DNA from: an uncultured Thermus sp.
GTDB lineage: Bacteria; Deinococcota; Deinococci; Deinococcales; Thermaceae
Direction: 5' to 3'
Length of the DNA: 64,000 bases
Assembly (NCBI GenBank): GCA_947085095.1
Contig: CAMTVD010000013.1
Location: forward strand, 61,360-125,359
Part shown: positions 30,668 to 42,600 of the stretch, in pieces
Position numbering within the stretch: the first letter of the stretch is position 1
Layout of the letters: each line of letters starts with the position of its first letter
Program-made: the position numbers

Positions 30668-33600
30668 GTCGTAGTGGACCAGCTGCGCGGCGTAGTGCTG
30701 GAGGTTGAGCCCCTCGGAGAAGACGTCGGTGGCCACCAGGATGGCGGTGGGGTGGCGGGCGAAGGCCAAGAGCTCCTCTTCCCGTTCCCTCTCGCTCATC
30801 TCCCCGTGCACCCCGAAGACGGGGTGGGGGAGGGCGCTCCTCAGGCGCTCCACCAGGTACTCCAGGGTGTCCCGGTAGCGGGTGAAGACCAAGGTCCGTC
30901 CCCGGCCCAGGCGTAGGGGGTCGCGGAGGAGGTCCAGGAGGGCCTGGAGCTTGCTATCCACCCGCAGGGCCTTCACGTGGCGCAGGAGGACCTCGAGGTA
31001 GGCCTTCTCCGCCTGGATGCGGGCCTGGTCCGCCAGGGAGAGCTCCAGGGCCAGATCCGCCTCCTCGGGCAGGAGGCGCTCGGGGGCGGTGTCAAAGAGG
31101 GCGGCCGCCTCCTCCCCGGTAGGTTTTTCCGTTCCCGCCAGGAGGCTTTCCAGCAGGTCCTTTCGCCTTTCCAGGCTCCTCTCTAAGGCCCTGGGGGAGC
31201 TGGTGGCCCGGCGCATGAGGTGCATGGAAAGCCACCGCCCCAGGATGGGCACCTGGGCGGGGTCCGGGTCAAAGACCTCGGCCTGGTAGCGGCGCACCGC
31301 CTCAAAGAGCTCCAGCTCCCCCTTGCTGGGTTCCACGGCCACCTCTTTGGCGTCCCGCCTTGGGAAGGGGCTGGGCTTCCCCTCTTTCTGGAACCAGTCC
31401 TCCACGTCCCGCCTGCGCCTTTGCACCACGTGCTTCTTGGCCGCTTCCCGGTCCAGGACCCCTCCCTTGAATAGCCCCAGGTGGCCGCCGTCCAGGTGCT
31501 CCAGGAGGCTCAGGAAGCTTTCCGTGTGGCCGCTGTGGGGGGTGGCGGTGAGGAGGAGGAGGTGGGGCACCCTCTGGGAGAGCTCCCGCACCAGGCGGTA
31601 GCGTTCCATCTGGCTTCCCCTTTCCGTGGGGGGGCGGGCCGCCATGTGGGCCTCGTCCACCAGGAGGAGGTCAAAGTCCTGCATGAGCACCAGGTGGCGC
31701 ACGCCGTCCTGCTTGGCGTAGTCCACGCTGGCGATGACCCGGTCAAAGTGGACCCAGGGGTTGGCCCCCGGGGGCAGGCTCCGGGCCAGGCGCTTGAGGT
31801 TGGGGCCGGAGAGGACCTCAAACTCCAGGTGGAAGAAGCGCTTTAGGGCTTCCTGCCACTGGGCCAGGAGGTGGGCGGGGGCCAGGACCAGGGCCCGGCG
31901 CACCTTGCCCCGCACCAAAAGCTCCTTGAGGATGAGCCCCGCCTCCACCGTCTTCCCCAGGCCCACGTCGTCGGCGATGAGAAGGCGCACCCGGGGCTGG
32001 CGCAGGGCCATGAGCAGGGGGACGAGCTGGTAGTTGGCGGGCACCACCCGGGAGCGCTGGAGGGAGAGGAAGGGGGCGTCGGCGTGGAGGGTGGAGAGCT
32101 CCAGGGCCCGGAGGAGGAGGTCGTGGAGGGCGGGGTCCCCGGGGGCTGGCGGGGGCAGGCCCAAGGAGGTGAGGCGGATGCCTTGGCCCTCGAGGGGCAG
32201 GTAGAAGAGGGCCTCCTCCTCGGTGTCCACCGCCCTGGCGAAGAGGAGGTCTTTCTGGCGGTGCTCCAGACGGTAGTCCCGCCCCCGGGCCCGGAAGAGG
32301 GCCCCGGGCTTCAGAAGCTCCACCGGGTCCATGGTGAAATCATAAGCCCAGGTAGCGCCGCACCGCGTCCAAGGGGGTGGAAGGGTCCACCTCCAGGCCC
32401 TCCCCTCCGCTTCCTTTGGGGAAGAGGCGCTTCCCACCCCAGCGGGCCAGGCTCTGGATCATGGTGCCGTCCCCAAGCTCCACGTCCTCGGGGCCCTCGG
32501 TGGGCGGGGGTACCCCGGCTTCCCTCAGGGCCTGGAAGAGAGGGTGGTAGGCCTCGTCTAAAAGGGGAAAGAGTTCCTCCCAGGGGATTCCCAGGCTTGT
32601 GGCCCCCTTCCCCAGGGTGAGCGTACGGGGCGGGAACTCCTCGCTGTTGTAGTGGCTCATCTCCTGGTAGACCCGCTCCCGGAGCTCGAGGGCCAGCTGG
32701 GCTAGCTCCTGAGCCCGTCCCTCGGGCCAGTCCCGGTGGGGAAAGAGAAGTTTGAGGAGGGCAGACACCCACTTGCGCACCGCCCGCACGTCCCGTTGCG
32801 TGAGGCCCTTGGGGAGGTCCAGGGCAGGATCAAAGCCCAGGGGCCTCAGCCTGCGGAAGGCGGCGCTCAGGTAGTCCACCACTAAGCCCGGCCCCTCGTA
32901 GAGGAGATCGGGGGTGATCTTGGGGAACTCGTGTCCGGGAAGAATGCCGTGGATACGGTCCAGAAAAGCCGTGTCCCCCCGGAGGCCTTGGGGCAGGACC
33001 CGGGTCACCGGAACCTCTGGGCGGTCGGTGTTTCCCAGAAAGACCAAGGAGGCCTCCGAGGTAAGGTTCCGCCCTCCACGGCTGAACTGGCCGGACTCCA
33101 TGTAGTCCTTGAGGATGGAGAGGATGGAGGGATCTTCCCAGGCGGTGTGGGCCACCTCGTCAAAGACGAGCACCTGGTAGGTGGGGATGAGACCAGGCTT
33201 GCGGGTGAGCTGGTTGTAAAAGAGCACCGCGGGGGTCACCTTTCCCCCCGAGATCACAAAGGCCTCGGGGGAGAGGTTTCTGAGGAGGTAGGTCTTCCCC
33301 GTCTGCCTGGGCCCCAGCTCCATCACGTGCAGATTGGGCTCCACCAAAGGGGCCAGGCGGGCCAGGTAGAGGAGTTGTTGCCTCGGGCTGAGGGCCTGGG
33401 GATTGAAGCCCACGGAAGCGAGAAGGAAGTGGGTCCACTCTTCCTCGGTGAAGAGGCTTCGCCCCTTGAGGTACGGGTCCAAGGTGGTGAGGCTCGCTTG
33501 GAAAGGGATGAACTGCTTTACCCGGACCCGCCCCCGCCCCCCTTCGTAAGCGAGCTCCAGGGTTCCCCACAGGCCGTAAAGTACCCCCGGGTGCTGCTCG

Positions 33601-39600: not shown

Positions 39601-42600
39601 CTTCGTACGTTCCCGGTGCCAAGCTTTCCCCGTTTCTAAGACGGAAGGATAGGGTAACGCTGTCCCTTGCGGGGAGAGCTTGAGGAGATATCTGCAAGAA
39701 GGCCCCAGCTTGCTCTAGCGCCGGGATTTCCGTAGCTAAGGAAAGGTTGCTCGCAGCCCCCTTGGTTTCTATCTGGATATCACGCTCAGCCTGCCCTTTA
39801 CCCCAGAGATTGCCCAGATCTAAGCGGGCGGGTCTGAGGACCACCTCGCTTAGCGTTGGGACTTCGTTTGGCGGAGCCTCGAGGACCCGGGCATTTGGCA
39901 CCGCAGCGAGGGAGCCCAGCACCTCTTTCGGGGCCGATATGCCGAGGCTAATGTAGAACAACCAGTCATAGGGGCCCCGCCTCAGCTGATAGCGCTTGGT
40001 GACGTCGTGGATGGTGTAGGGACCAGGATCGTTATCTCTTCCGTCAGTGAAGACGTACACGCTGTAGGCTTCGTTGGGGCGCCGGAGCTTTTCTAGGCGA
40101 TCGAGGACGCTAAGAAGTGTCCTGTAAAGGTACGTTTGAGAACCCGTGGCCTTTAGAGACTCCAGATACTGCAGGAAGGCCTCTTTTTCCTCAGGAACAG
40201 AGAAGGTGCGGCTGACTCCTGGGCCTGCATCAAAAGGCTGAACCGTGATCCGGCTTCCGGGAGGAATCTGTTCAGCAAACCGTTTGAGTTCCCTTTTGAC
40301 GTGGGGGAAGATAACCCGGCCTTTCCCATCACCCAAACCCATCATGGAAGCCGAGGTGTCCAGGATGAACACGTAATGGAAACGCTCTGGGACCACTGCT
40401 GGCTGAGGTGAGGCGGGCCCTTTAGGAGGGCAGGGTGCAGCGAGGCCCGCCAAGCTTAGGCCGACAACCATAGCCATGAGAACTGGCTTCATAAGCCTCC
40501 AACCTCCCCTAGTCTAGTTTAGGGAGCTGGCCTTGGCCCCTGGTGACATTTGACCATGGGCTACTCCCTAGATGCCCTCCTTTCTGGCCGGTTGTGCGAA
40601 GGTATTCACCCCCACCCTAGCACCCGTTTGGCCCTTTCGGAAAGGCGGGCGGGCGTCCAGGGCGGGTCAAAGGTGAGCTCTACCCGGACCTCCTCCACCC
40701 CGGGGATGCGGGAGAGGGCCTGGCGGACGGCATCCCCCATGCTGTCGTGGAGGGGGCAGCCCGGGGTGGTAAGGGTCATGCGCACGTGGGCCCGGGGCGG
40801 ATCCACCTTGACCTCGTAGATCAGCCCCAGGTTCACCACATCTAGTCCCAGCTCGGGGTCATAGACGTTTTCCAGTAGAGCCCAGGCTTGCGCTTCCAAG
40901 GGGTTTATCTCGTTCATCGCCGCATCACCTCCAAAAGAGCGTAAAGGTGGGGCAGGGTACCCAGCAGGTAAAGCCAGGCGGCACCAGGCAGAAAGGGGGT
41001 CAGGAGGGCTCCCAGGACGAAGAGTCCGCCGGCCAGGTAGGCGGCTCCTTCGGGAAGCATCTCCTTGAGGAGGGGGACGCGCTCCTTCCCGGCCCGTGGG
41101 GCGTAGCGGTGGGTCCAGACCAGGAAGGGAAGGATCTTGTAGAGCATCCCCGTGACCACCAGGCCCACGAAGCCCAGAGCGAACCAGTAAGCGGCCGCCA
41201 GGGAGCGGAAGGGGAGGGCCAGCAGGGCCAGGCCCAGAAAAGCCAGACCCACCAGGTAATGCTGGACGCCCAGGTCCAGGGGGCGCTTCATGCGGTTTTT
41301 CAGGATGCGATGGGTGTCGTAAAGGGCGAGGAGGTAGGTCGCGAAGAGGAGGAGGTAGCCCAGCCACTCGCCGAGGAGGAGGCCCAGTAGCCCCAGGTTG
41401 GCGGTCCAAAGGAGGAGGCCGAGGGCACCCTCGTCTACCCCATGGGTAAGGGTAAACATGGACACCAGCTTGTACCCCACGCCCAGGATGGAGAGGAGGA
41501 AAATCCCCACGAAGCCCAAAAGGACGTGCCATAGAAAGCGGTCGGGATCGTAGGAGCCGTAGCGCTGGGTGAGGCTCTGAAAGAGGCCCAGGACGGGAGT
41601 CAAGACCAGGTAGAGAACCACCCAGGCCAAGGCGGTGGCCACGCGGTTCCAGCGGGGGGCCATGCGAAAGGTGCGGAGCATATGGTAGGCGAAGAAGCTA
41701 AGCCCCAAAAGAGCAAGACCTCCCCCCCAAGGGACCAGGGCCGGGTTCCAGGCGAAGCCGGTGGCCAGGAGGACGGTGCCCAAACCCCAGAGGAGCATGA
41801 CCGGGTAGCCCCAGATGTGGCGGTAAAGGGGAGCCTCGAGGACCACGGGCACAAGCTGGTGCATGGCTCCCAGCAGAACCCCCACCCCGAAGCCCAGGAG
41901 GAGGAGGTGGGCCATGGCTAAGCCCAGAGGATGCCGGGGGATGGTGAGGGCCTCGGGGTGGAGGGTGAAGAGCAGGGCGAAGGCCAGGAGAAACGCCTCC
42001 CCCAGGAAGAAGAAACCCACGGGGATGGACAGGGGAATGGTGCGGTTCTTGGCGGTGACGATCACGTCTTCAGCGTGCAGGCCACCCCGGGCCTAGGCCA
42101 TGACCTGGGTCATCTCAGCGCCCGGGGGGAAGGAGGGTGAGGCGGTCCCCCTCCTTGACCGGGGTGGCAAGGCCCCCCAGGTAGTTCACGTCACGCCCAT
42201 TCAGCAAAAGGGCCCAGCGGGGGCGCAAGCGCCAGAGGACCTTGGCCTCCGTCCAAAGCCCCACCTCCTCTTCACTCGGGATCCCCTCCAGGGCCACGTC
42301 CCGCAGGGTGGGGTTCACGGTCAGGACCTTGGCCAAGGCCTCGCCCGCCGTGGCCGCCCTTAGGTCTAAGGGCTCGGGCTGGGCCGGGTGGGCCAGGCCC
42401 AGGGCCTGGAACTGGACCCCATGGGCCCCTTCTTTGAGGGCGAGGGCGGCGTCGTACCCCTTGCGCATCACCTCCTCTTGGCCCGAGAGGTAGACGAGCC
42501 AGGGGCGCACGTCCCGTACCCTTTCCGCCACGTAGCGGGCCACCAGGGCGAAGGAGAGGCCCACGTACTCCGGGGGGATGTGGGCCCGCTTGGGGCCCAG

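Follow-up and report, generated by a model that had tools for sequence, protein, structure and literature searches.

Relatives of the cassette among described systems

The association of a vWA protein with the tubulin-like GTPase FtsZl1 was published in 2010 by Makarova and Koonin (PMC2875224), and in 2020 tubulin and vWA proteins were reported together in predicted conflict systems by Kaur et al. (PMC7159879). As far as the available part of the former paper goes, its operons place a coiled-coil FtsZl1 (Tubulin_2) beside a vWA protein that is membrane-bound or secreted and keeps its MIDAS intact, and include lineage-specific uncharacterised partners. The same features are found in the gene cassette described here, which lies in a 64,000-nucleotide window (the whole stretch of DNA analysed) of an uncultured Thermus sp. 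(contig CAMTVD010000013.1, positions 61,360 to 125,359). Different from the operons in that part of the paper however, the cassette is without an OmpA-like, P-loop GTPase or kinase partner, its third gene (X691) is identified here as a degenerate tubulin paralogue, and an AAA+ ATPase of a BrxL clade is added, as are helicase or methylase genes. No publication was found that reports the BrxL link or identifies X691 as a pseudo-tubulin, and the gene-family tables of PMC2875224 (Additional files 5 and 6) may already list the third gene.

The GAP1-N2 DO-GTPase systems in the available text of PMC7159879 likewise combine two tubulin-domain coiled-coil genes with a membrane protein carrying an extracellular vWA domain, and are interpreted there as cytoskeleton-like complexes whose assembly is regulated in the course of biological conflict. 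They are however defined by DO-GTPase, GAP1 and FNIII-repeat proteins and come from Firmicutes and Actinobacteria; a Pfam scan detected none of these partners at the cassette or in the window, and BrxL is not mentioned in that paper. BrxL itself is described, in the part of PMC10164562 available, as an ATP-dependent DNA-binding ring required for restriction. With Zorya type I (Hu et al. 2024, PMC11946911, in the portion available) the likeness may be one of logic only, in that an envelope-anchored sensor and a long cytoplasmic coiled coil are combined with recruited DNA-binding and SNF2-type helicase-nuclease effectors. The membrane parts are not homologous, ZorAB being a 5:2 ion-driven motor as opposed to a vWA protein with tubulin-like GTPases, and the cassette would draw its energy from GTP and ATP, not from an ion gradient. 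Finally, TubZ/TubR partition systems and phage PhuZ are tubulin-superfamily GTPases on mobile replicons too, but the cassette tubulin belongs to Tubulin_2, a different family from TubZ/PhuZ (Pfam Tubulin). Moreover, the cassette has a membrane vWA partner and no centromere-binding one and is found on chromosomes as well.

The four genes and their products

The initial annotation recognised four tightly packed minus-strand genes, which an ORF listing of the window confirms, with intergenic gaps of 4, 3 and 10 nt (Table 1). The Pfam scores then given were reproduced (VWA_2 4e-09, Tubulin_2 7.7e-63, BrxL_ATPase 8.1e-94), the gene order was found again in the RefSeq annotation of pMESIL01 and likewise in those of pMtWR-220 and pTHEOS01, and the bridging contig from an independent study was recovered: it measures 8,909 nt, spans 32610-41518 and therefore joins the cassette to its right flank. 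The absence of a PADLOC model for three of the four genes holds for the vWA and tubulin-like proteins, whereas X691 has a match, only to the coiled-coil-type LmuB (0.0019). In pMESIL01 an IS701-like element is interposed between X691 and brxL.

Table 1. Features of the window discussed in the text (window positions)
Feature	Position	Strand	Product length or database matches
vWA membrane protein gene	38786..40492	-	568 aa
FtsZl1 / Tubulin_2 GTPase gene	36031..38781	-	916 aa
X691 gene	33952..36027	-	691 aa
Short BrxL-clade AAA+ ATPase gene	32340..33941	-	533 aa
DrmD-like SNF2 helicase	29576..32332	-	PADLOC DrmD 3e-116
DrmMI / type IIG-like N6-adenine methyltransferase	25405..29442	-	Eco57I 5.9e-22, N6_Mtase; PADLOC DrmMI 2.9e-105
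Opposite-strand insert within helicase-methylase module	20021..25401	+	RecQ-PRTase, DprA/SLOG protein, second UvrD-like helicase
DruE-like DEAD/DEAH helicase	14415..19982	-	PADLOC DruE 9e-97
UvrD-like helicase, ~665 aa	12413..14410	-	UvrD_C, UvrD-helicase, AAA_19; GajB / NERD+UvrD-type PADLOC

The vWA protein, which also matches Pfam VWA (3.6e-08), is composed of an N-terminal hydrophobic signal-like segment (residues 3-22), the vWA domain, a beta-rich region, a TM helix (~438-463, the second hydrophobic segment) and a predicted cytoplasmic tail of ~105 aa. Its MIDAS motif is intact (DTSAS at residue 45), and all 21 orthologues checked have DxSxS. From this layout we read the protein as bitopic, its MIDAS-competent vWA domain being predicted to lie extracellularly and its tail in the cytoplasm. 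In the tubulin-like protein (Tubulin_2 at 213 bits, cut-off 27) the T1 (GLGGTG) and T4 (GGTGSG) loops are intact; GGTG occurs in all 22 homologues, the T4 loop reading GGTGSG in 20 and GGTGAG in 2. Its middle part is helical and coiled-coil-like, profile positions 350-580 matching only coiled-coil chains in the PDB, and is followed by a C-terminal region that ends in a conserved ..FPTL motif.

X691 matches no Pfam family above its cut-off and has relatives in only 21 clusters among 1.84 billion representatives. Its earlier designation as a pseudo-tubulin is supported by profile comparisons and motif checks: transitive profile comparisons link it to the tubulin-like gene, of which we read it as a degenerate paralogue. 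The connecting element is a wider, three-gene form of the family, in which a vWA gene, a tubulin gene and a full-length pseudo-tubulin gene stand together in Cyanobacteria, Acidobacteriota, Bacteroidota and Longimicrobiales. The N-domain of X691 (1-192) is homologous to that of the full-length pseudo-tubulin behind the tubulin gene (hhalign probability 93.3%, E 2.7e-7; with a profile of 20 sequences 96.2%, E 2.2e-9), and these third genes in turn match tubulin with 100% probability (E 4.6e-40, 795 columns). T1 and T4 are lost in X691, with VAFPGLA and VLAPADPD in their places. The middle of the protein is a coiled coil, which is followed by a Pro/Glu-rich linker and, at the C-terminus, by a conserved R-x-N-P-L-L-D-E-L peptide that may be of a docking type.

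The fourth protein matches BrxL_N (6.5e-23) in addition to BrxL_ATPase, PADLOC BrxL (2e-106) and TIGR02688 (395 bits, over the cut-off of 329), and its residues 8-436 align to 8EMC, of which residues 14-463 are covered (3.8e-74). Like the BrxL of BREX types 1 and 4 (8EMC) it has an N-terminal DNA-binding region and an MCM-like AAA+ module; it is short and without a Lon-like domain, as is type 4 BrxL in the part of PMC12839542 available. Its Walker A motif reads GPRQTGKT and its Walker B motif VLVFDEV, and Walker motifs are present in 9 of 9 cassette BrxLs. Then again, the protein differs from BREX BrxL in belonging to a separate clade with at most 40% identity to other Deinococcota BrxLs and in never having been seen with PglZ, of which the genome of the window (G000, 93% complete) contains none. 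In addition, Thermaceae cassette BrxLs carry a C-terminal domain of ~75 aa (~459-533), which hmmsearch finds in G000 only in BrxL and at the DruE-like helicase locus. When 301 Deinococcota genomes were searched, 13 of 15 homologues with at least 53% identity, the window's own not counted, lay directly behind an X691 gene, as compared to none of 14 homologues at 35-39% identity. Both this survey and the adjacency to X691 support the view that the cassette ATPase represents a dedicated BrxL clade tied to X691.

Genes behind BrxL and distribution of the unit

Co-inheritance of the four genes, as claimed before, is supported, because ranking 13 loci by identity to the window gives the same order for each of the four proteins. 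That the unit consists of just four genes among neighbours, however, does not hold, as a helicase gene, in some loci with a methylase gene after it, begins 7-20 nt behind BrxL: the unit is larger, and the BrxL string runs on into these genes. In type A loci, such as the window, BrxL is followed by a DrmD-like helicase and a methylase, in type B loci by a UvrD-like helicase; the complete type A string of the window reads BrxL, DrmD-like helicase, N6-adenine methylase, DruE-like helicase and UvrD-like helicase. A same-strand helicase stands behind BrxL in all 13 informative metagenome loci (DrmD-like with methylase in 8, UvrD-like after a 20-nt gap in 5) on the plasmids pMESIL01, pTthSNM3-3b, pMtWR-220 and pTHEOS01, and in the genome G014. 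In pMtWR-220 an inserted wHTH gene and a transposase precede it.

Alignment to the pMESIL01 orthologue places the likely start of the DrmD-like helicase at the ATG at 32332, 7 nt past the BrxL stop, and that of the methyltransferase is likely the ATG at 29442. A DrmD-like gene also lies behind BrxL in L001, L002 and 8 metagenome loci, the methyltransferase gene is conserved behind it in plasmid and metagenome type A loci, and both are probable operon partners in type A. The UvrD-like family, whose RefSeq name in relatives is 3'-5' exonuclease, provides the recurrent final gene of the extended unit; it is located directly behind BrxL in L003, L004, L008, L124-L127 and L130 and behind the DruE-like gene in L085 and L086. 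In the DruE-like gene of the window an in-frame TGA (14655-14657), at a position where relatives have W, cuts off the final 76 codons (14415-14645). These encode the C-terminal domain common to BrxL, which occupies residues 1763-1838 of the 1838-aa plasmid orthologues. Because BrxL and the DruE-like helicase have this domain in common, the "flanking defence genes" probably include some that are partners rather than independent witnesses. The best PADLOC matches of the downstream genes (DrmD, DrmMI, DruE) point to DISARM class 1 and Druantia; the DrmD-like gene however stays under the NCBIfam DrmD cut-off (424.7 vs 610 bits), and Pfam and PADLOC scans of the window revealed no DUF1998 (DrmB), PLD (DrmC) or further Druantia genes. 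The opposite-strand insert (G+C 0.56-0.60) matches PADLOC PsyrT (6.1e-239, RecQ-PRTase) and PsyrA (9.8e-61, DprA/SLOG), is missing at that place in pMESIL01 and pTthSNM3-3b, and is a neighbour outside the cassette.

The cassette does extend past Thermaceae, to Deinococcus and Binatia/HR30, and we propose that it is the Deinococcota/Binatia branch of a widespread vWA-FtsZl1 gene set. Of 68 Thermaceae species genomes, 13 contain X691; for the genus, its presence in 2 of 31 other species genomes differs from the initial count of no Tubulin_2 in 28 other genomes. The G+C content of the cassette is 0.59, that of its surroundings 0.66-0.70. Three runs, one from each of three studies, contain contigs in which 32644 is followed directly by 41489, without the cassette in between, the shorter side of the joint being supported by just 30-35 letters; their depths are 327, 73.5 and 223, those of cassette-carrying contigs 41, 8.6 and 11. 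In natural populations most cells appear to have lost the cassette. With 1 weak match among 50,697 phage records and none in IMG/VR, it is essentially absent from phage collections and does not come across as a phage gene.

Defence, envelope or plasmid maintenance

Taken together, the neighbours, the patchy distribution, the low G+C content and the presence/absence variation in populations give a defence role for the cassette about an even chance. At PADLOC E <= 1e-10, 23 of 112 flanking proteins in 10 loci, which are not independent of each other, match as compared to 5 of 89 in a control of five G000 regions (Fisher p = 0.0035). A complete Hma system, CRISPR-Cas genes and PsyrTA are among the neighbours. 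Several of the matches are generic, the UvrD- or GajB-type ones are unspecific, and the mad3/mad8 matches in L006 are an ABC transporter. Moreover, Thermaceae megaplasmids are defence-rich anyway, so that neighbours there are weak witnesses, and helicases and methylase, if partners, cannot be counted as independent defence context.

Could the cassette instead be an envelope or cytoskeleton machine for membrane remodelling, vesicle formation or envelope maintenance, with no immunity role? Its BrxL-type ATPase would then have been recruited to handle DNA or protein at some step, and the nearby defence genes would just share the island. The vWA-FtsZl1 pair with membrane-associated partners is so interpreted in the available part of PMC2875224. 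The three-gene form is mostly found away from clear defence contexts and often beside ordinary genes, its fourth genes being of unrelated housekeeping types (cyanophycin synthetase, TonB-type outer-membrane protein), and its flanks show only weak enrichment for defence neighbours (13 of 100 proteins vs 5 of 89 in the control, p = 0.13). In L011 and L014, two Binatia loci that represent a single lineage (83% identity between their neighbours), the cassette is surrounded by metabolic and other genes (sugar-kinase, oxidoreductase, beta-helix), none of which matches PADLOC. We nevertheless consider this explanation unlikely, given the patchiness within families (besides Thermaceae, the ~910-aa type is found in 8 of 101 sampled Nostocaceae), the tight co-directional spacing of helicase or methylase genes in all informative Thermaceae-type loci, the C-terminal domain common to BrxL and the DruE-like helicase, the foreign G+C content and the apparent loss from most cells.

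A stand-alone four-gene defence system, as put forward in the initial annotation, to which the adjoining helicase and methylase genes would be separate island systems, is quite improbable too. It would agree with L009, L011, L012 and L014, where no DrmD-like, methylase or UvrD-like gene stands directly behind the cassette, with the different partners in type A and type B loci, and with the helicase-methylase pair upstream of the cassette in G014. It would not account for the same-strand helicase in every informative metagenome locus and all four plasmids, for BrxL-to-helicase gaps of 7 and 20 nt, or for the domain that ties BrxL to the DruE-like helicase. Finally, a megaplasmid maintenance or partition device, with a TubZ-like tubulin as DNA mover and BrxL as the DNA-binding part, is very improbable: all four PLSDB matches are megaplasmids of 242-348 kb, the pMESIL01 replication initiator lies ~700 nt past the UvrD-like gene and ~15 kb from brxL, and the window carries genes that we take to be typical of Thermus megaplasmids, but the cassette is not confined to plasmids, to which the initial annotation assigned it on finished replicons, since G014 carries it at 1.26 Mb of one single 3.1-Mb contig, the three-gene form is chromosomal (3.9, 5.2 and 8.6 Mb), partition needs no extracellular vWA domain with MIDAS, a Pfam scan found no TubR-like or ParB-like gene in the window, and 55 of 68 Thermaceae species genomes are without X691.

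That the whole gene set is an envelope-acting anti-phage or anti-plasmid system is in our judgement an evenly balanced proposition. In such a system the vWA ectodomain, presumed to face outward, would sense or anchor at the site of invasion, and the tail of the protein would nucleate a GTP-dependent polymer of tubulin and pseudo-tubulin, a putative heteropolymer. Its conserved tubulin and X691 tails may serve as docking sites that recruit the BrxL ring, which would load onto double-stranded DNA as it comes in. That DNA would be the substrate of the adjacent helicases and their nuclease function, and in type A loci methylation would mark self. The linkage to helicase or methylase genes is near-constant, and it is therefore plausible that the cassette is a candidate new anti-phage system with a bacterial tubulin at its centre.

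The vWA protein, the tubulin-like GTPase and X691

The four packed minus-strand ORFs listed in the initial annotation were recovered from our ORF list and Pfam search with the same boundaries and scores (see table). They are separated by spacers of 4, 3 and 10 nt, the first of which, between the end of the vWA gene and the start of the tubulin gene, gives the operon form described in 2010. The G+C content is 0.59 over 36-40 kb as compared to 0.66-0.70 in the surroundings. PADLOC has no model for the vWA or the tubulin-like protein, gives only a coiled-coil-type match for X691, the 691-aa product of the third cassette gene, and identifies the BrxL-like ATPase as BrxL (2e-106). 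Rfam and tRNA scans of the whole window gave no match, and scans of 24500-41500 gave no promoter-like site, where 0.9 were expected, and 18 terminator-like sites against an expectation of 20.3.

Features of the window and of the compared loci (positions refer to the window unless a locus is named)
Feature	Position	Strand	Remarks
vWA protein	38786-40492	-	568 aa; Pfam VWA_2 4e-09
Tubulin-like GTPase	36031-38781	-	916 aa; Tubulin_2 7.7e-63
X691	33952-36027	-	691 aa; no Pfam score above cut-off
BrxL-like ATPase	32340-33941	-	533 aa; BrxL_N + BrxL_ATPase 8.1e-94
Shared C-terminal domain	32340-32560 and 14415-14645	-	BrxL and DruE-like C-termini
DruE-like gene	14415-19982	-	in-frame TGA at 14655-14657
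Opposite-strand insert	20021-25401	+	between methylase and DruE-like helicase; G+C 0.56-0.60
Overlapping long ORFs	40606-42065	-	two ORFs; membrane ORF 40914-42065
670-aa ORF	10446-12458	-	left edge of island; G+C 0.60
Segment skipped in related contigs	32645-41488		8,844 nt
DruE-like helicase with shared domain	L085 11236-16752		type A plasmid piece
DruE-like helicase with shared domain	L086 10895-16411		type A plasmid piece
Giant helicase set	L002 1-7015		upstream of cassette, pMESIL01
Giant helicase set	L004 21652-29698		downstream of cassette, pTHEOS01
Hma system and PDC-S01-like ATPase	L003 34-11070		directly upstream of cassette, pMtWR-220
PDC-S01-like gene	L018 4180-6219		upstream of three-gene locus, Longimicrobiales
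Third gene (example)	L046 12774-15830		full-length tubulin paralogue

The vWA protein combines a hydrophobic N-terminal segment (residues 3-22) with one transmembrane helix (438-463), which would leave about 105 residues in the cytoplasm, and this layout is repeated in the orthologues checked. The MIDAS motif DxSxS of its vWA domain is intact, as it is in 21 of 21 orthologues checked, and a PDB profile search returned one weak match. The cytoplasmic cassette proteins, that is, the tubulin-like protein, X691 and BrxL, contain no hydrophobic segment.

The tubulin-like protein (P0002) matches profile PF13809 with 213.3 bits (cut-off 27) over profile positions 1-354 of 356, and its T1 (GLGGTG) and T4 (GGTGSG) loops are both intact. 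All 22 aligned homologues, which come from several phyla, have GGTG, and 20 of them have GGTGSG, the remaining two having GGTGAG. In a PDB profile search the middle of the protein matched coiled-coil chains only and no solved structural relative was found; the C-terminal end of the cassette-type tubulins reads ..FPxL. Within the tubulin superfamily FtsZl1 is the branch that has diverged furthest, and we know of no member of it with a known function. Both the vWA and the tubulin gene were detected in 50 of 69 wider-family loci and in every cassette-type locus extending that far.

X691 had been called an orphan and indeed passes the cut-off of no Pfam family, but profile comparisons identify it as a probable degenerate tubulin paralogue. 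A scan of species representatives (one genome per species) with the tubulin alignment yielded 80 loci, 69 of which contain no X691 or BrxL relative detectable by phmmer. In 17 of 17 wider-family loci inspected (L016-L022, L025, L033, L037, L044-L046, L050, L077, L082 and L084) the tubulin gene is directly followed by a same-strand ORF, here termed the third gene, which encodes 869-1139 aa in 15 of them, is split into 558 + 499 aa in L021 and is cut by the locus end in L045. An alignment of 16 third genes matches the tubulin alignment from end to end (probability 100%, E 4.6e-40, 795 columns), and 2 of the 13 third genes that were scanned exceed the Tubulin_2 cut-off by themselves. X691 in turn matches the N-domain of the third genes in profile-profile comparison (93.3%, E 2.7e-7), as do its residues 1-192 when 20 X691 sequences are used (96.2%, E 2.2e-9). 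Direct matches to tubulin are weak but collinear, namely for X691 residues 39-160 (tubulin 119-273; 26%, P 7e-4) and for residues 476-559 (tubulin 531-619; 65%, E 5.9e-5). A protein atlas built on a language model offers Tubulin_2 clusters as the only named family for X691 (0.84-0.89), which we take as a lead only, and a PDB profile search with X691 gave nothing below E 0.29. By hmmsearch against 1.84 billion representatives the X691 family is small, comprising 21 clusters or proteins, and the search did not reach any of the long third genes; the link is thus visible only profile-to-profile.

The equivalents of T1 and T4 in X691 read VAFPGLA and VLAPADPD in 20 of 20 aligned sequences, and this loss of the GTP-binding loops makes the prefix 'pseudo' apt. 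The loops are intact in tubulin, half kept in the third genes of Bacteroidota and Fischerbacteria (GLGxxGS, D..GS) and gone from X691 as well as from the third genes of cyanobacteria and acidobacteria; judged from these motifs, their decay is stepwise from tubulin via the third genes to X691. X691 and many third genes end in a conserved NPL-containing peptide that follows a low-complexity linker. Taken together, X691 is predicted to be a dead tubulin paralogue, the N-domain being tied to tubulin by a strong transitive link through the third genes. The third gene itself, in cyanobacterial, acidobacterial and Bacteroidota loci among L016-L084, is a full-length tubulin paralogue with decayed GTP loops which public annotation lists as a hypothetical protein.

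The BrxL-like ATPase and the genes beyond it

The BrxL-like ATPase passes TIGR02688 (395.2 bits, cut-off 329.3) but not the long-form model TIGR02653 (297.5 versus 628). It aligns with residues 14-463 of the 679 of Acinetobacter BrxL (8EMC; 3.8e-74), and it matches the long PADLOC BrxL model only as far as position 464 of 680; the Lon-like (or HKD) C-terminal domain of type 1 BrxL is absent. Walker A and B are intact in 9 of 9 cassette BrxL orthologues. PglZ (PF08665) has no match in the window's genome, which is 93% complete and whose one BrxL-type ATPase is the cassette copy, and hence the cassette BrxL is not part of a BREX system. Neither PglZ nor BrxC was matched among the window ORFs scanned with Pfam and PADLOC, and the genes found do not make up the BREX core of PglZ, BrxC/PglY and PglX methylase.

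BrxL at an identity of at least 53% occurs in 16 of 301 Deinococcota genomes, that of the window included, all others being at or below 40%. Outside the window's genome, 13 of the 15 close homologues directly follow the X691 gene, the exceptions being one truncated copy and one with a stop codon, and none of 14 distant homologues fetched has X691 nearby. That BrxL is instead a member of a downstream helicase-methylase module can be rejected, because the same BrxL clade follows X691 also where this module is absent. By its gene context, the cassette BrxL belongs with the tubulin genes.

The four-gene unit of the initial annotation is real and conserved, but the gene string runs on past BrxL, with a same-strand helicase gene set following it in 13 of 13 informative metagenome loci. 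In eight of these (type A) the set pairs a DrmD-like SNF2 helicase with a large N6-adenine methylase, and in five (type B), two of which are probably the same sequence, it consists of a UvrD-like helicase of about 665 aa after a 20-nt gap. The window is of type A: its DrmD-like gene begins 7 nt past the BrxL stop and is followed by the methylase, an opposite-strand insert, a DruE-like helicase and a UvrD-like gene. Both type A plasmids, pMESIL01 and pTthSNM3-3b, carry this string with the insert missing at this place, pMtWR-220 and pTHEOS01 are of type B, and in genome G014 the cassette has the helicase-methylase pair on its upstream side and the UvrD-like gene on its downstream side. Judged from gene order, the unit is longer than four genes. 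It does not amount to class 1 DISARM (DrmA, DrmB, DrmD and DrmMI), of which only DrmD-like and DrmMI-like genes are present; the DrmD-like gene falls under the NCBIfam cut-off and Pfam detects no DUF1998 (DrmB) among the window ORFs.

The insert encodes a PsyrT-like RecQ-PRTase (PADLOC 6.1e-239), a PsyrA-like DprA/SLOG protein and a 775-aa UvrD-like protein. Contigs of two sequencing runs (X6 and X7) lack 132 nt at 29443-29575, between the DrmD-like stop and the methylase start, which is a spacer-length variant in related populations.

The C-terminal ~75 residues of the Thermaceae cassette BrxL and of the plasmid DruE-like helicase are homologous to each other. This shared domain has no Pfam match, is found in the window's genome only at the C-termini of BrxL and the DruE-like gene, and is 68-72% identical between the plasmid DruE-like copies and the window copy. 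An in-frame TGA severs it from the window DruE-like gene, dividing the latter into ORFs of 1775 and 76 aa where the plasmid orthologues have 1838 aa. The codon is one for tryptophan in relatives, and the TGA stems either from a recent nonsense mutation or from a variant in the assembly.

Distribution and genomic neighbourhood

By tblastn, X691 is present on four megaplasmids. RefSeq annotation of three of them gives the same cassette order, and in the fourth (pTthSNM3-3b) a transposase has taken the place of the vWA gene and the greater part of the tubulin gene. Seven of the 80 species-genome loci contain all four genes (L006, L007, L008, L009, L011, L012 and L014), three are cut by contig ends (L005, L013 and L015), and a Binatia locus (L010) has three genes without BrxL. 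Carriers belong to Thermaceae, Deinococcus and Binatia/HR30; X691 occurs in 13 of 68 Thermaceae species genomes, that of the window included, and in 2 of 31 other genomes of the window's own genus. The plasmid location noted earlier for finished replicons does not hold throughout, since one carrier is a single 3.1-Mb contig. Identity to the window ranks the loci in the same order for all four proteins, with the highest values for BrxL (79-49%) and the lowest for X691 (51-26%).

The cassette also varies within populations. In three runs, each of a different study, contigs pass directly from 32644 to 41489 and thereby skip most of BrxL, X691, the tubulin and vWA genes, a DUF59 gene and half a membrane ORF. 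Their depths are 327, 73.5 and 223 versus 41, 8.6 and 11 for cassette-carrying contigs, that is, 8-20 times higher, and most related cells in those samples seem to lack the cassette. The reading frame across the joint would stay open for 294 codons, and the left end of the skipped segment coincides with the boundary between the AAA+ module and the C-terminal extension of BrxL. Against this reading count the shorter side of the joint, which measures only 30-35 nt, and the ends of the segment, which show no direct repeat and share no word of 14 nt or more. The two overlapping long ORFs at the right end of the segment likely represent a small DUF59/FeS-assembly gene, whose start ATG is at 40917, and a polytopic membrane ORF of 383 aa, the latter with no family match.

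Is the cassette then a defence system? In the flanks of 10 cassette loci 23 of 112 proteins match PADLOC models at E <= 1e-10, as compared to 5 of 89 proteins in five arbitrary 20-kb regions of the window's genome, all housekeeping-like (Fisher p = 0.0035, for loci that are related and 'flanks' some of which are probably partners). The neighbours include a complete Hma system, PDC-S01, CRISPR-Cas genes and PsyrTA. The patchy distribution of the cassette, its foreign G+C content, the near absence of the tubulin from phage collections and the contigs that skip the cassette speak for a defence role as well. On the other hand, two Binatia loci of one lineage (L011 and L014) lie among metabolic genes, several PADLOC matches are generic, the flanks of the wider three-gene family (13 of 100 with matches) are not clearly above the control, and the genes next after that family are ordinary. 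Weighing these points, we consider a defence function of the cassette plausible, about as likely as not.

Several neighbouring genes deserve separate mention. The Hma system upstream of the pMtWR-220 cassette is of the DUF499 type and is accompanied by a PDC-S01-like ATPase, and a three-gene locus of a Longimicrobiales genome likewise has a PDC-S01-like gene on its upstream side. On two plasmids the cassette adjoins a giant RecQ/DinG-type helicase (~1,700 aa) followed by three hypothetical genes (~250, 165-190 and ~500 aa), possibly a further island module that has no name yet. A 670-aa ORF in a stretch of low G+C at the left edge of the island has no Pfam, NCBIfam or PADLOC match; a relation to the 665-672-aa genes upstream of the Binatia cassettes was ruled out by BLASTP.

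Relation to known systems and a proposed mechanism

The vWA-FtsZl1 operon was described in 2010 together with a membrane-remodelling reading (PMC2875224), and Tubulin_2 proteins form a divergent outgroup in a 2023 survey (PMC9871819). The GAP1-N2 GTPase conflict systems of Firmicutes and Actinobacteria include, as variable parts, coiled-coil tubulin-domain pairs and a membrane vWA protein (PMC7159879); they are defined by DO-GTPase, GAP1 and FNIII-repeat genes, and no P-loop GTPase or FNIII match was found in the window. MoxR-vWA ternary conflict systems pair a vWA protein with a MoxR AAA+ ATPase, whereas the AAA+ protein of the cassette is of the BrxL type and no window ORF matches MoxR. Type III (TubZRC) plasmid partition, with a TubZ-type tubulin and a TubR adaptor at a centromere, does not fit a cassette whose tubulin matches only Tubulin_2 in Pfam, whose genes include no small HTH partner and which in G014 is chromosomal. 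A BREX census of 2026 reports short type 4 BrxL along with new BREX-related systems and mentions neither tubulin nor FtsZ (PMC12839542). The literature covered contains no link between a tubulin homologue and BrxL and nowhere calls the third gene a paralogue; the 2010 supplement on associated gene families lies outside this coverage and may bear on both points. The 8 papers in which tubulin and BrxL both occur as words, judged by their titles, concern plant BRXL proteins. The cassette belongs with the vWA-FtsZl1 systems; it is richer than first noted and has a plausible, predicted immune role.

The sequences document the predicted topology, the motifs, the probable paralogy, the co-inheritance and the gene string of the cassette. 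Beyond this we suggest that the vWA ectodomain may sense or mark an event at the envelope, that the cytoplasmic tail of the protein would nucleate a GTP-dependent polymer of active and dead tubulin-like subunits, and that the conserved terminal peptides of tubulin and X691 could recruit the BrxL ring. BrxL of Acinetobacter is described as an ATP-dependent, chambered DNA-binding ring needed for restriction (PMC10164562). Helicase partners would act on DNA after BrxL recruitment, and in type A loci methylation might provide a self mark. The logic is similar to that of Zorya, whose membrane part has no homology to that of the cassette (PMC11946911). In its boldest form, which we regard as conceivable but rather unlikely, the proposal is that of a first immune system built on a bacterial tubulin: an extracellular vWA sensor would nucleate an active/dead heteropolymer under the membrane, whose short conserved tails would position a BrxL DNA clamp and exchangeable modules for helicase, nuclease and methylase functions at the entry site of foreign DNA, with the ~75-aa domain of BrxL and the DruE-like helicase serving as the common plug that docks effectors on the filament.

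The cassette provides a concrete, testable hypothesis for one FtsZl1 branch, since restriction of phages and plasmids offers a clear genetic read-out in thermophiles that can be cultivated. Its pair of active and dead paralogues recalls alpha/beta-tubulin, and its proteins, being thermostable, would suit structural work. Should the defence role prove false, the work would still correct how the 'orphan' and the third gene of a widespread operon are annotated. Should it prove true, a cytoskeletal polymer would join the list of immune mechanisms and BrxL would be at work outside BREX, which bears on the question of BrxL function.
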